In this document: positions 5,609 to 12,308 of the stretch, in pieces
Numbering within the stretch: position 1 is the first letter of the stretch
How the letters are laid out: each line of letters starts with the position of its first letter
Assembly: GCA_027031765.1 (NCBI GenBank)
Contig: JALVPN010000084.1
Coordinates: forward strand, 2,693-15,000
Length of the DNA: 12,308 nt
Direction of reading: 5' to 3'
DNA from: Promethearchaeota archaeon
Lineage (GTDB): Archaea; Asgardarchaeota; Thorarchaeia; Thorarchaeales; Thorarchaeaceae
Program-made: the position numbers and the translations under genes
The notes under the pieces: generated by a model
Database searches by the model: none
What the model was told of the DNA's origin: nothing
The model's input: only the letters and a program-made list of their open reading frames with translations

Positions 5609-8407
5609 ATGTGCGTTCTCAGGTCTCCGGACCGAAGAGTGCGTTGCGCAATGACACTCATGTTGCTGATGGTGCTCACGACGACAGCCACCACAGGGGC
5701 GTCACACCGGCGCTTGGGGGCCGCCCTCGTGTTGGGACACAGCACCCATCAGGACGACCAGACACATACTGGTATCGCCCCGGCCGCCGGCAACACTTCT
5801 GTACTCTGGTCATACGCGACCGGAGACCGTGTGTCCACACTGCCTGCCGTCGGCGACATCGATGGCGACGGTACCCTAGAGGTCGTATTCGGCAGTGCGG
5901 ACATGTATGCCTACGCTCTCGATGGCGTCTCCGGTGGTCTGGAGTGGTCGTCCGATGTGGGAGATGCGTTGTCGGCCTCGCCCGTACTGGGTGATGTCGA
6001 CAGCGATGGTGACCTTGATGTTGTCTTCGGCGACTTCGGCGGACATGCAAGGGCGCTTGAGGGCACAAACGGTACACCCATCTGGTCGTTCTCGACGAGT
6101 GGTGTGGTGCACACCCCGGCACTGGGCGACGTTGACAGTGATGGCGACCTTGACGTTGTGTTCGGCGACGAGGCGGGGTATGTGTACGCGCTCAATGGAG
6201 AGAACGGCACGGTCCTCTGGTCGTTCCAGTTGGCGGGTGGCGTGTACTCCTCACCCGCACTGGGTGATGTTGACGGTGACGGCGACATTGACGCTGTGGT
6301 CGGCGGCCACGACCACATAGTGTACGCCATTGATGGCCCCACTGGCACCGTAGTGTGGTCCTTCGAGACCGGAGATGCGGTCAGTTCGTCGCCGGCAATT
6401 GGCGATGTGGACGGCGACGGTCAGACGGAGGTCGTCGTGGGCAGCGCTGACACGGTCGTCTACGCCATCACTGGTCAGAGTGCGGTCCTGCTCTGGTCGT
6501 TCCAGACAGGGGGCCCGGTGGACTCGGCCCCAGCCCTCGGCGACATCGATGGTGACGACAACCTCGATATTGTGGTGGCCAGCGGTGACGGGCGTGTATA
6601 TGCCATTGATGGTGCAACCGGTACCCCGTCCTGGACGTCCTATCTCGGGGCCTCCTCGACCTCTTCACCGTCGCTCGCCGACCTGGAGGGCGATGGCGAC
6701 CTGGACGTTGTGGTCAGCGGTGCGGGCGGTGAAGTGGTGGTCATCGACGGCCCTTCAGGGACCCCACTCTGGTCGTCCTATGTGGGGGACTCGGCCTCTC
6801 CACCTGTGGCGGGCGATGTTGACGGGGACGGCGACCTGGACATTGTAGTGGGCTCTGACGACCACAACATGTACGCCATCGAGGGCTCAACACGTAGCGG
6901 GCGGGTGTTCTGGGAGGCCCTCAGCGGTGACCTGATGTTCCTGCGTACTGCGTGGGTCGAAATGGTCGACCGCGATGGCGACATGCTGTCCAACTACTCG
7001 GAGTCCCTCTACGGCACTGACAGCGATAGTGACGACACCGACGGCGACGGGATGCCGGACGGATGGGAAGTGGCCCACGCCCTCGACCCGACGGACGGTG
7101 ACGACAGCTCCGGTGACCCGGACCTTGACGCCCTCACGAACCTCGAAGAGTACCAGACCGGCTGCGACCCCCAGGACGGCGACACCGATGACGACGGCAT
7201 GCCGGACGGATGGGAGGTGGCAAACGGCCTTGACCCCACCTTGGACGTAGACGCGTCGGACGACCCCGATGACGACGGCCTCTCCAACCTCGGGGAGTAC
7301 GAGAGCGGTTGCGACCCATATAATAGCGACACCGATGATGATGGCATGCCTGACGGATGGGAGGTCTCCTCCAGCCTCGATGCCACGGACGCCACGGACG
7401 CCACGGGCGACCCCGACCACGACGGGCTCTCCAACCTTGAGGAGTACCAGCACGGCTGCGACCCCCAGGACGGCGACACCGACGACGACGGGCTCCCCGA
7501 CGGATGGGAGGTCTCCAACGGCCTGGCGCCTACCGCTCCGGCGGACGCGTCCTACGATACTGATGATGATGGCCTCACAAACCTTGAGGAGTACCAGCAC
7601 GGCTGCGACCCGCTCAACAATGACACCGATGGTGACGGGCTGCCGGACGGCTGGGAGGTGGCACACGGCCTGAATGCGACGTACTCCGGCGATGCGGCCC
7701 TCGACACCGACTCTGACGACCTGTCCAACCTCCAGGAGTACCAGCACGGCTGCGACCCGCTCAACAATGACACCGATGGTGATGGCATGCCCGATGGCTG
7801 GGAGGTCTCCGTCGGCACTGACCCAGTGCTAGATGACCAGTCCGCGGATCCCGACGGTGACGGCCTCACGAACCTCGAGGAGTACTCGGCCGGGACACTG
7901 CCACACAACGCCGACACCGACGGCGACTCTGTCCCCGATGGTGCAGAAGTGTGGGCGGGCTACGACCCGACCGACCCCTCTGACACGCCCCCGCCCCTCA
8001 TCGTACTGTATGCCCCGGTCATCGTGCCACCACTCGTAGGTGTCATCGCCGTTGCCCTTGTGCTCTCACGACACCGCCTTGCATCACTCTTCACGACCAT
8101 GTCAGCGCGCCGTGAAACCGCCGCCCTAGCAGGGGACGAAGGTGCGGTTGTTGAGTGGCTGAGGGACGACACGCCACTCGACGAGTCCGACCCGCGACGT
8201 GTCCTGCGGGACATCTACATGCGGTACCTCGAGGCGGTGTCCCTCATTGAGGCCCGTCAGTTCGAACGTGCTGTCACACTGCTGGAAGGACTCCTTGCGG
8301 AGCTCGGTTCCCGGGAGGAGCTGGAGGTGCTGGACCCGGCGGTGGTGGAGTTCGTACGCAATGAGGTCGAGGCTGCACTGTCCGTGGCGGTCGTGGGCGG
8401 GCGGTAG
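5609..8407 (+). CDS. Receptor-like surface protein, paralog 1 (~932 aa): signal peptide, 8 FG-GAP/PQQ-like blades, TSP3-like acidic stalk, TM helix, 112-aa cytoplasmic tail
   Basis: Eight W-S...PAxGDxDGDGxxDVVxG...YAxDG repeats; six ~49-aa DTDxDGxPDGWE...NLEEY units; TM at ~7997-8068 followed by RHR. The start is uncertain (ATG 5609, GTG 5639 or ATG 5651) and is bounded by an in-frame TAG at 5513-5515. Confidence 0.88.
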   Translation: MCVLRSPDRRVRCAMTLMLLMVLTTTATTGASHRRLGAALVLGHSTHQDDQTHTGIAPAAGNTSVLWSYATGDRVSTLPAVGDIDGDGTLEVVFGSADMYAYALDGVSGGLEWSSDVGDALSASPVLGDVDSDGDLDVVFGDFGGHARALEGTNGTPIWSFSTSGVVHTPALGDVDSDGDLDVVFGDEAGYVYALNGENGTVLWSFQLAGGVYSSPALGDVDGDGDIDAVVGGHDHIVYAIDGPTGTVVWSFETGDAVSSSPAIGDVDGDGQTEVVVGSADTVVYAITGQSAVLLWSFQTGGPVDSAPALGDIDGDDNLDIVVASGDGRVYAIDGATGTPSWTSYLGASSTSSPSLADLEGDGDLDVVVSGAGGEVVVIDGPSGTPLWSSYVGDSASPPVAGDVDGDGDLDIVVGSDDHNMYAIEGSTRSGRVFWEALSGDLMFLRTAWVEMVDRDGDMLSNYSESLYGTDSDSDDTDGDGMPDGWEVAHALDPTDGDDSSGDPDLDALTNLEEYQTGCDPQDGDTDDDGMPDGWEVANGLDPTLDVDASDDPDDDGLSNLGEYESGCDPYNSDTDDDGMPDGWEVSSSLDATDATDATGDPDHDGLSNLEEYQHGCDPQDGDTDDDGLPDGWEVSNGLAPTAPADASYDTDDDGLTNLEEYQHGCDPLNNDTDGDGLPDGWEVAHGLNATYSGDAALDTDSDDLSNLQEYQHGCDPLNNDTDGDGMPDGWEVSVGTDPVLDDQSADPDGDGLTNLEEYSAGTLPHNADTDGDSVPDGAEVWAGYDPTDPSDTPPPLIVLYAPVIVPPLVGVIAVALVLSRHRLASLFTTMSARRETAALAGDEGAVVEWLRDDTPLDESDPRRVLRDIYMRYLEAVSLIEARQFERAVTLLEGLLAELGSREELEVLDPAVVEFVRNEVEAALSVAVVGGR
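5801..6886 (+). repeat. Eight intragenic blade repeats of paralog 1 (138-bp period, one 135-bp step)
   Basis: Trp codons at 5807, 5945, 6083, 6218, 6356, 6494, 6632 and 6770. Confidence 0.9.
6968..7987 (+). repeat. TSP3-like Asp-rich stalk repeats of paralog 1 (six ~147-bp double units plus flanking half units)
   Basis: Unit DTDxDG(M/L)PDGWEV..GLDP....D...D.DxDGL(S/T)NLEEY..GCDP. Perfect 49-bp direct repeat at 7587-7635 and 7734-7782, 147 bp apart. Confidence 0.9.
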
Positions 8408-8414
8408 ATGGCAC

Positions 8415-8555
8415 TCCTGTGACGAGTGACGGTCGTCCTTACAGTGACGGTGGGCAGCGGGGTGGTCCTGCGGTTGGCGGGCGCGACCATCCATGGTACG
8501 ATACAACATGGTACGGGACTGATACCGTGTGGTGTGCAGGTGTTCCGGGAACGCC
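8415..8555 (+). repeat. Non-coding direct repeat, copy A, downstream of paralog 1
   Basis: Aligns with 11257-11398 at roughly 75-80% identity by eye (shared blocks TCCTGTGAC, GGTGGGCAGCGGGGTG, CGATACAAC, GGGACTGA, GTGGTGTGCA, GTGTTCCGGGAA). Confidence 0.9.
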
Positions 8556-8676
8556 ATCGTACGATCCTTGCTACTCGTCGCATCCACATTGCGGTGTGAG
8601 ACCGCGAAACATCACCACATGGAGTGCTGCCAGACGTGTGCCCCATGTGACTCACCGTATACGATACGGGCAAAGC

Positions 8677-8692
8677 AAGACTTTTGTCACGT
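8677..8692 (+). promoter_or_regulatory. Shared upstream motif AAGACTTTTGTCACGT (candidate BRE/TATA) before paralog 2
   Basis: 14/16 identical to AAGACTTTTATCCCGT at 11942-11957. The two motifs begin 203 and 219 nt before homologous GTG starts. Confidence 0.45.
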
Positions 8693-11398: not shown

Positions 11399-11941
11399 GT
11401 GGAAGGGGCGGAGCAGGAGGAGCGGGCAGCAGGTGTGTAGGGTGCAGTGACCCAGCTGTTGGAGCGGCTGCACGGGCATGCCCCACTGCGACATCCCAGC
11501 AACGTCAGTAGGGTGGACAGTGGAACCAGCCACGACCCCGTGAATTAGATAGGAGTCCGCAATCCAACACGGAGAGGGCTCATAGGGGTGGTCGTGCGGT
11601 GGCTGACGGTCAGGCCTCACGTATGGCCACGGTGTCTGTCGCGGTTGAGTGGGGGTACGGCCTGCAGGTGGCACTTCCGGGGCATCCACGTAGTGACGTG
11701 GCATAGCGGTACGCACGGGTGGTGTGGGCCGCCACGCAGGCCGGTCATGCATGTCACTCTGGTGGACCGGAGTGGTACTCACAGATGTGCAGCGAGTCGT
11801 GCTCATCTCAATCACCCCGCACCATTGCCGGGCCACACGCACTTGTGCGGACATTACATCATTGCAGACCAACTGTCAGACGAGAACAATGCCAGTCCGC
11901 ACTCCTGCCCCAGCCACACAGTAACAGGCCCTGACCACAAG

Positions 11942-11957
11942 AAGACTTTTATCCCGT
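11942..11957 (+). promoter_or_regulatory. Shared upstream motif AAGACTTTTATCCCGT (candidate BRE/TATA, TTTTAT core) before the edge gene
   Basis: Homologous to 8677-8692; purine-rich run followed by TTTTAT. Confidence 0.45.
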
Positions 11958-12160
11958 GTCCAGAAGCGGTCGACTAGAAATCCGTGGTGCAGCCGTACGG
12001 TGCCCGTTGGTGCGTCGTAAGCCGCCAGCCGGGGCCATGGCATCGCGGTGCCACCCAACAGTTTCCCTATGAGGACAGGGCTCCCAACGCTACCGGGCAC
12101 GACACCCTACAGCACGGTACGGAAGGACGTGACGGGGCACAACAAACAGGGTGGACTACA

Positions 12161-12308
12161 GTGCGCAAACGTTCCTTTTTCCTCGTTGCCCTTGTGTGGG
12201 CTCTGCTCGTTGGCACAACAACCACATGCCATGGACACGCGACGGCATGGGCCCGATGCACGACCACCATGGTCGGCAGTCCCACCGACATGGCACACCT
12301 CCATCAGG
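12161..12308 (+). CDS. 5' end of a secreted or membrane protein, probably a third array member (3'-truncated, not in the ORF track)
   Basis: GTG-started frame MRKRSFFLVALVWALLVGTTTTCHGHATAWARCTTTMVGSPTDMAHLHQ is open to the window end and reads as a signal peptide. Start context GGGTGGACTACAGTGCGCA matches GGGTGGTTACAGTGCACA of paralog 2. Confidence 0.65.
   Translation, partial: MRKRSFFLVALVWALLVGTTTTCHGHATAWARCTTTMVGSPTDMAHLHQ

Follow-up and report, generated by a model that had tools for sequence, protein, structure and literature searches.

Receptor-like propeller proteins of an Asgard archaeon: divergent heads, similar tails and a probable history of recombination between paralogs

Introduction

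The window discussed here is a stretch of 12,308 nucleotides (nt) from a Promethearchaeota archaeon of the Thorarchaeia (GenBank assembly GCA_027031765.1, contig JALVPN010000084.1, positions 2,693 to 15,000 of the forward strand). Its 3' part holds two complete genes and the beginning of a third one, which follow each other in tandem and code for receptor-shaped proteins. An earlier interpretation, in the following called the sequence-only reading, had described their common order as signal peptide, eight blades with DxDxDG loops, acidic stalk, transmembrane (TM) helix and a tail of 112 amino acids (aa), and translation and Pfam searches bear this out. Nor was it mistaken about a third signal-peptide gene at the edge, an open reading frame (ORF) from ~12161, or about the polarised identity of the two complete genes: blade 1 agrees in 25/46 positions, the tails in 93/112 without any insertion or deletion. 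From the near-constant tail it deduced a constant intracellular effector that serves variable sensors. We arrive at a different view: the contrast between tail and head appears to be largely a matter of age, not of constraint.

The genes at the locus

The features of the three genes are compiled in Table 1. In genes 1 and 2 the loops of the blades follow the pattern G/A-D-x-D/E-G/S-D-G, one per blade, and recur at a distance of 45-46 aa. A single TM helix, followed by RHR, leads into the tail, which starts RHRLASL. The signal peptide and the adjacent linker are ~33% identical between the two genes, and their alignment needs gaps. Gene 3 runs off at the end of the window, which is also the end of the contig (C84, 15000 b). 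Its 5' end is 65% identical over ~440 nt to a gene of contig C15, which goes on into propeller blades. The rest of gene 3 may lie on contig C125.

Table 1. Features of the three tandem genes, in window coordinates
Feature	Position	Strand	Basis
Gene 1, type I membrane protein, 932 aa	5609..8407	+	ORF from ATG 5609, translation, Pfam
Gene 1 propeller, eight blades (45-46 aa), one DxDxDG-type loop per blade	5801..6898	+	Blade register; collinear with the modelled gene 2 propeller
Gene 1 acidic stalk, TSP3-type repeats, 12 motif matches	6899..7996	+	TSP3_bac 49.9 bits (cutoff 25)
Gene 1 TM helix, then RHR (positive-inside)	7997..8068	+	Translation, hydropathy scan
Gene 1 predicted cytoplasmic tail, 112 aa, class A	8069..8404	+	Fold predicted by AlphaFold2; hhalign to juxtamembrane module; no Pfam family
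Gene 2, paralog, ~792 aa	~8871..11249	+	GTG start inferred from signal-peptide position
Gene 2 propeller, eight exact 46-aa blades	9090..10193	+	Blade register, AlphaFold2 model
Gene 2 TSP3 stalk, shorter than that of gene 1, 6 motif matches	10194..10838	+	Pfam 41 bits (cutoff 25), motif count
Gene 2 TM helix	10839..10910	+	Translation, hydropathy scan
Gene 2 predicted cytoplasmic tail, 112 aa, 93/112 identical to gene 1 tail	10911..11246	+	
Shared 3' block, gene 1 copy	7600..8555	+	blastn, windowed identity, downstream alignment, gradient of synonymous differences
Shared 3' block, gene 2 copy	10460..11398	+	blastn, windowed identity, downstream alignment
Gene 3, start codon and signal peptide, incomplete at contig end	~12161..12308	+	Translation; similarity to C15
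Intergenic stretch 5' of gene 3, homologous to DNA upstream of the C28 tail copy	11439..11974	+	

The propeller head and the stalk

The heads of the two complete proteins are recognised by several Pfam families. PF13570 (Beta-prop_ACSF4) scores 161.9 and 195.2 bits at a cutoff of 133, PQQ_2 (PF13360) 75 and 94 bits, FG-GAP_3 (PF13517) 86 and 155 bits and FG-GAP (PF01839) 28 and 74 bits; both FG-GAP families are above their cutoffs. The AlphaFold2 (AF2) model of the gene 2 propeller, which was built from an alignment of five paralogs, has a predicted local distance difference test (pLDDT) value of 90.5 and 32 strands that make up eight four-stranded blades. Its best matches in the PDB are the designed protein Cake8 (TM-score 0.77/0.95), BamB and YxaL, all of them eight-bladed and PQQ-like. 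In Foldseek the three together cover E-values of 1e-19 to 1e-28 and TM-scores of 0.7-0.95, with BamB and YxaL at E ~1e-20 and TM-scores of 0.7-0.8. The comparison with integrin alpha made in the sequence-only reading does not hold for the head: there are eight blades, and the closest folds are those of Cake8, BamB and YxaL, not that of integrin alpha. To judge from the model, the head is a BamB/PQQ-type eight-bladed propeller with an additional FG-GAP-type, putatively calcium-binding loop in each blade. The stalk consists of TSP3-type repeats (TSP3_bac, PF18884; scores in Table 1).

By standard convention the A-B loop of a propeller lies on the bottom face, and the top face is the one commonly used for binding. 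In the DSSP register of the model the calcium loop is the A-B loop. Variability of the head peaks in the D-A and B-C loops of the top face, the outer strand D and part of the C-D loop. Expressed as the ratio of the proportions of nonsynonymous and synonymous differences (pN/pS), the D-A and B-C loops and strand D range from 0.53 to 0.67; the calcium loop together with the inner strands A and B is constrained, with values from 0.14 to 0.34. Positive selection on the head was not demonstrated, pN/pS being <1 in all structural classes.

The blades of gene 2 form an indel-free array of 46-aa units with a mean mutual identity of 65%, and blades 1 and 2 agree in 41/46 positions, which indicates recent duplication or conversion of blades within the gene. 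The mutual identity of the gene 1 blades is 43%. If the blades of gene 1 are compared with those of gene 2, blades of the same index are 49% identical and all pairs 51%.

The paralog family and its tails

To count the tail in the genome, independently of any head, had been named beforehand as a check of the family. The result is five copies, not two, and thus a real paralog family: two copies on C84 and one each on contigs C125, C28 and C199. This tail, here called class A, occurs among about 20 propeller-TSP3-TM paralogs, which carry at least three types of tails. A motif scan of the genome yielded 23 ORFs with motifs of TSP3 repeats or calcium loops, the tails of which comprise 1-14 aa, ~110 aa or a coiled coil of 350-450 aa. 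The family gene of C125 is cut by the contig edge. That of C199 is an ORF of 1120 codons, the tail of which is 30% identical to the gene 1 tail.

The class A copy of C28 is peculiar. It is a headless ORF of 344 codons (C28:16001-17035, minus strand) with a remnant of the last blade, a short stalk, the TM helix and an intact tail; signal peptide and seven blades are missing. The ratio of nonsynonymous to synonymous substitutions per site (dN/dS) of its tail is 0.15-0.33. The DNA 5' of it is homologous to positions 11439-11974 of the window (blastn identity of 66% over 299 nt and 74% over 92 nt, with translated motifs in common), and because of this match the ORF looks as if it had arisen by deletion from a copy of the gene 3 type.

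The long coiled-coil tail, class B, is present in at least eight genes of the genome. It starts with (R/H)PW(R/K)(Y/H)DP, ends with ...TRLLERLY and is seen on the same type of propeller-TSP3-TM ectodomain on C28 (17202-18542), C162, C115, C50, C87, C222, C226 and C33. Class B tails match no Pfam family, and their matches in other genera are weak. On C60 (11231-14146, plus strand) a class B tail ends a protein of 972 codons with signal peptide, unknown ectodomain and many TM helices. A 735-codon ORF of C212 (minus strand), which has no evident TM helix and adjoins a short-tailed propeller gene, contains a class B-related segment.

The propeller-TSP3-TM design as such is widespread. It was detected in all 15 other genera searched of the same taxonomic family, mostly with tails of 1-40 aa, and some further families of the phylum have it too.

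The apparent constancy of the tails

The uneven divergence along the two genes, which the sequence-only reading had proposed to check, is real at the level of amino acids; the synonymous sites and the flanking DNA, however, show the same polarity. Estimated according to Nei and Gojobori with Jukes-Cantor (JC) correction, the tails of genes 1 and 2 differ by a dS of 0.40 and a dN of 0.10, with a dN/dS of ~0.24. The corresponding values for the heads are 1.6, 0.38 and again ~0.24, but here dS and dN/dS are imprecise, since the synonymous sites are near saturation and the blades lack positional orthology. The proportion of synonymous differences (pS) is 0.32 [0.24-0.41] in TM helix plus tail versus 0.65 [0.59-0.70] in the propeller, and the bootstrap intervals do not overlap. 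The G+C content at third codon positions is equal (0.73 versus 0.72). Along the 3' part of the genes pS drops steadily: it is ~0.8 where the stalk begins and has fallen to 0.22 by the 3' end. The membrane-proximal stalk has a dN/dS of 0.08 and is more constrained than the tail.

Nor does the similarity end with the coding sequence. The non-coding DNA 3' of the stop codons of genes 1 and 2 is 74-81% identical for 100-150 nt. The last stalk repeats, the TM helix, the tail and ~150 nt of non-coding flank thus constitute a shared 3' block, for which blastn reports 79.8% identity over 940 nt and which has homologous counterparts on C125 and C28. The C125 gene is of mosaic structure. Over the last 223 codons it agrees with gene 1 in ~95% of the nucleotides, while its blades are nearer to gene 2 (79% versus 68%). 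Informative sites in favour of conflicting quartet topologies occur in clusters (runs test, p = 0.0007). Compared with gene 1, the C199 gene shows identities of 30% in the tail, 40% in the head and 55% in the stalk. At this depth the tail is the least conserved region, and its constancy in the closer paralogs would therefore result from gene conversion or recent shared ancestry. The gradient of pS, the constraint on the stalk, the similarity of non-coding DNA, the mosaic of C125 and the depth pattern of C199 are the reasons why we attribute the contrast largely to age.

How does the idea of a variable sensor with a constant effector fare in the light of these data? It holds that selection keeps the tail fit for one cytoplasmic partner, while the heads diversify for different ligands. 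There is something to be said for it. The tail is folded and under purifying selection, it is retained with 29 invariant residues in the distant C199 gene, and the head varies most in its top-face loops and outer strand. Without correction, pN/pS amounts to 0.28 in the tail, below the 0.48 of the head, and related tail modules are attached to different membrane parts, such as the multi-pass protein of C60. Selection at the protein level does not, however, predict the polarity of synonymous sites and of a non-coding flank, and the JC-corrected dN/dS is the same in tail and head. The membrane-proximal stalk is under stronger constraint than the tail (0.08 versus 0.24), against C199 the tail ranks last, and the same type of ectodomain is combined with very short and with long coiled-coil tails. 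Also, no partner gene is linked to any of the tail copies. The near-constant tail can accordingly not be taken as evidence of a constant effector: pS falls alongside the amino-acid divergence, similarity reaches beyond the stop codon, and the argument fails as well on the mosaic of C125, on C199 and on the other tail classes that share the ectodomain. We consider this explanation unlikely. The broader notion of a receptor repertoire survives in part, as there is a family of ~20 genes with head variation in top-face loops; a cytoplasmic partner was not found.

The tail domain

That the proteins possess a substantial tail domain, as the sequence-only reading had maintained, is well supported. 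Its AF2 model has a pLDDT of 90.3 and a predicted TM-score (pTM) of 0.81. In this model a membrane-proximal helix spans residues 2-18; a short helix and a core of three helices (residues 42-111) follow. In all pairs of paralogs dN/dS of the tail is 0.15-0.33, and 29 positions are invariant even if the 30%-identical C199 tail is included.

The attempts to assign the domain to something known met with little success. No Pfam family matches; TPR_10 (E 0.064) and TPR_4 (E 0.37) come closest, each in one of the five members. Among solved folds the core resembles generic bundles such as TPR units, MIT and BAG domains; the highest Z is 8.1, and many unrelated bundles are tied there. The MIT domain of ULK3 reaches a Z of 8.0, that of archaeal Vps4 (2w2u) a Z of 6.9 with a root-mean-square deviation of 2.3 over 72 residues, and a Z below ~13 is to be expected for any helical bundle. 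Foldseek against the PDB returned nothing at E <= 0.001, and fold searches at large (Foldseek of the PDB, VIA wide, ESM Atlas by shape and by features) returned only generic helical-bundle or TPR-like matches. A sequence-profile search of the PDB gave nothing below E 0.4, and neither an enzymatic nor a known signalling domain was found in the tail by Pfam or by this profile search.

Outside the family the domain is extremely rare. In a word-indexed search of proteins (528-1682 aa) the tail region gave no match. HMMER, run exhaustively over 1.84 billion representatives, found a single true tail, P0005, which is the short copy of C28 from a separate ENA assembly; the other eight matches are TPR-like repeat proteins aligned over one or two hairpins. 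JGI metagenomes scanned with tail patterns yielded nothing, and 40 related genomes had no tail. A match in genome G019 (E 0.008) lies within a MutS gene and is spurious. Prediction of a tail homodimer gave a score of 0.00, which bears neither way on binding.

More instructive is the comparison with other juxtamembrane sequences. Profile-profile alignments pair the tail core with the first ~90 residues of the class B tails, at probabilities of 77-84%. These residues belong to a juxtamembrane module that directly follows the TM helix and displays the pattern PW...(V/I)L.W...E..g.F..A...L. When sequences of other genera are added to the module, namely the 123-aa tail of a propeller-TSP3 protein of G009 and small proteins of G047, G006 and G008, hhalign aligns the tail with it at 92.6% probability (E 4.7e-7, 79 columns); the score is 42.3, as against at most 14.1 in 30 column shuffles. 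The small proteins (G047:C12, G008:C50, G006:C8) have 222-292 codons, an N-terminal TM helix, almost no ectodomain, and the module followed by a coiled coil. Judged by these profiles, the 112-aa tail would be a divergent, genus-restricted form of a Thorarchaeial juxtamembrane helical module. This relationship supports a real intracellular role of the predicted cytoplasmic tail, most plausibly the docking of a protein.

Against such a role one may argue that the proteins are a passive surface coat or adhesin, which the TM helix anchors and in which the tail merely stabilises the anchor or spaces the molecules, with neither signalling nor docking. The frequency of the propeller-TSP3-TM design with tails of mostly 1-40 aa in all 15 other genera searched fits this possibility, as do the confinement of the 112-aa tail to this genus and the failure to find enzymatic or known signalling domains. 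A dispensable spacer, however, is hard to reconcile with a confidently predicted independent fold and a dN/dS of ~0.2, and the occurrence of the related module in small membrane-anchored proteins of other genera that lack an ectodomain suggests a function of its own at the inner face. All things considered, the passive coat appears quite improbable.

A bolder speculation goes further. The tail and its parent Thorarchaeial module could be an MIT/TPR-like adaptor between surface receptors and a cytoplasmic machine, for instance ESCRT-III/Vps4 or the actin cytoskeleton, and gene conversion would swap the heads onto this common intracellular output. We rate this as a long shot. If it were true, a prokaryotic forerunner of the links from receptors to the cytoskeleton or to receptor sorting would have been found.

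Assembly and genomic surroundings

The source genome is an archaeal metagenome-assembled genome (MAG) of 2.95 Mb in 229 contigs with a completeness of 95%. The PepF protein encoded in the window has its top matches, with 64-66% identity, in MAGs labelled Candidatus Thorarchaeota. The only public run that contains the DNA of the window is a hydrothermal-vent metagenome.

With repetitive genes from short reads, one has to ask whether the paralogs are strain variants or chimeric joins within repeated stalk DNA. Contigs C15, C28, C125, C162, C188 and C33 break off inside family genes, in the repeats of propeller or stalk. The last blades of C15 are closely similar to those at the start of the upstream gene of C28. 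As several contigs end in such repeats, the family is a major source of breaks in the assembly, and how many copies there really are is uncertain. The many genes that stop at contig edges are indeed what an artefact would produce, and so are the breaks of independently assembled contigs in the stalks and the stretches of 98-100% identity that gene 1 and C125 have in common. Yet genes 1 and 2 reside on one contig, and the contigs assembled independently from the vent run span both the gene 1-gene 2 junction (8383-9166) and the gene 2-gene 3 junction (11135-12308) with 100% identity to the window. Furthermore, four tail variants differ in their downstream flanks and neighbouring genes, and a separate ENA assembly reproduces the headless arrangement of C28 with 99.67% identity over 2702 nt. 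That the family is an artefact of assembly is, in consequence, scarcely credible.

The remainder of the window is of less concern here. According to Pfam, the genes 5' of the receptor genes code for a polyprenyl synthetase, a thioredoxin-domain protein, an Ntn-type asparaginase and PepF. In the thioredoxin-domain protein (821-1531, plus strand) the domain (residues 135-232) is preceded by an N-terminal extension of ~130 aa that matched no family. Between the asparaginase gene and pepF lies a 217-codon ORF (2634-3287, plus strand) without Pfam match. The spacers behind genes 1 and 2 (8408-8870, ~460 nt, and 11250-12160, ~910 nt) are of unusual length for an archaeon. Scans for Rfam families and tRNAs gave no match anywhere in the window, these spacers included, and no antisense or intergenic ORF over the tails and spacers belongs to a Pfam family.

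Proposed function and significance

Taking all this together, we deem it probable that the genes represent a lineage-specifically expanded family of type I surface proteins, glycoprotein-like adhesins or receptors, and that the similarity of their 3' ends arose mainly by recombination between paralogs. The protein would work as follows. A Sec signal peptide would export the eight-bladed propeller, which presumably carries its calcium loops on the bottom face and presents the variable D-A and B-C loops, the likely site of ligand binding, on top. A chain of TSP3 repeats, variable in number (6 to 12 or more), would keep the propeller away from the cell, and the single TM helix would anchor the protein. 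Inside, the membrane-proximal helix and the TPR/MIT-like bundle of three helices would most likely dock another protein at the membrane. At the level of DNA, the 3' block of ~0.9 kb may be exchanged or homogenised between the paralogs by gene conversion, and the blades and stalk repeats of the 5' part may turn over within each gene.

Several observations weigh against this explanation. The dS and dN/dS estimates for the nearly saturated head are imprecise, and the uncorrected pN/pS values of 0.48 in the head and 0.28 in the tail make a somewhat stronger constraint on the tail possible. The low divergence at the 3' end may just as well reflect the real age of a recent duplication of the whole gene, the repeats of which were scrambled thereafter; such a history is recombinational too, though of another sort. 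As for the conserved 3' flank, it may serve as a terminator or have some other regulatory function. The independent contigs break in the repeated stalks, which leaves the pairing of head and tail in each gene to the short-read assembler of the MAG. The homology of tail and module is based on the comparison of profiles with few sequences. Finally, the neighbours of the five tail loci have no gene in common and include no candidate partner; they are unrelated housekeeping genes (PepF, FeoB with a DtxR-like repressor, UDP-glucose dehydrogenase, FEN1, OTCase).

Why should one care? The contact of Asgard archaea with partners and surfaces bears on models of the origin of eukaryotes, and their surface proteins are essentially uncharacterised. 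Here a Thorarchaeia-like lineage has expanded a receptor-shaped protein to ~20 paralogs with at least three kinds of tails, and recombination between paralogs shapes the repertoire of its surface proteins. The orphan domain of 112 aa offers a small and concrete bait for an intracellular partner. The case also teaches caution: regional amino-acid identity between paralogs has to be compared with synonymous sites and flanking DNA before it is read as functional constraint.

Comparison with known systems

Divergent ectodomains on a conserved cytoplasmic end, together with recombination between paralogs, are known from the var/PfEMP1 proteins of Plasmodium with their ATS segment and from the clustered protocadherins. 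By analogy, the archaeal family may be compared to them, since it is likewise divergent outside, shared inside and apparently recombining. The likeness does not extend to sequence or fold. In the archaeon the similar part would be kept alike by exchange of DNA between complete genes, and nothing points to antigenic variation or switching.

The tail may be compared with TPR hairpins and MIT bundles. Its core (residues 42-111) can be aligned with them, and its profile finds TPR-like repeat proteins. No Pfam TPR or MIT match is significant, however, and the Z values remain within the background of helical bundles.

Repeated DxDxDGxxDxxE motifs make up the stalk, as is typical of TSP3 and its bacterial variant (PF18884). 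The peculiarity lies in their use, in an archaeon, as a spacer of variable length between propeller and TM helix.

Integrin repeats in Asgard archaea are credited to Liu et al. 2021 by two later articles (PMC9258230, PMC9197732), and in the literature on FG-GAP or thrombospondin proteins of Asgard archaea or Thorarchaeota we found no description of the present family or its tails. With integrin alpha the proteins share a propeller whose calcium loops lie on the lower face and whose variable loops lie on the upper one, matches to FG-GAP and FG-GAP_3 with DxDxDG loops, a stalk, a single TM helix and the type I orientation. They have, however, eight blades by repeat count and AF2 model, where integrin alpha has seven, a TSP3 stalk in place of the Ig-like thigh and calf legs, no GFFKR after the TM helix, and a folded tail of 112 aa. 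An integrin beta-like partner was not seen among the neighbouring, housekeeping genes, to which this search was confined. The proteins thus resemble integrin alpha in overall logic, but fail in the defining number of blades, the legs and the GFFKR motif.

Closest to the head are the BamB, YxaL and other PQQ-like propellers. They have eight four-stranded blades in common with it, Pfam matches above the curated cutoffs and the Foldseek matches. Unlike these, the head contains a DxDxDG loop in every blade and forms the tip of a type I, TSP3-stalked membrane protein, whereas proteins of the BamB/YxaL type are lipoproteins or soluble. Propeller and TSP3 stalk are, in short, of known kinds; what draws attention is an orphan cytoplasmic module on an expanded family of Asgard surface proteins, together with the recombination between the paralogs.

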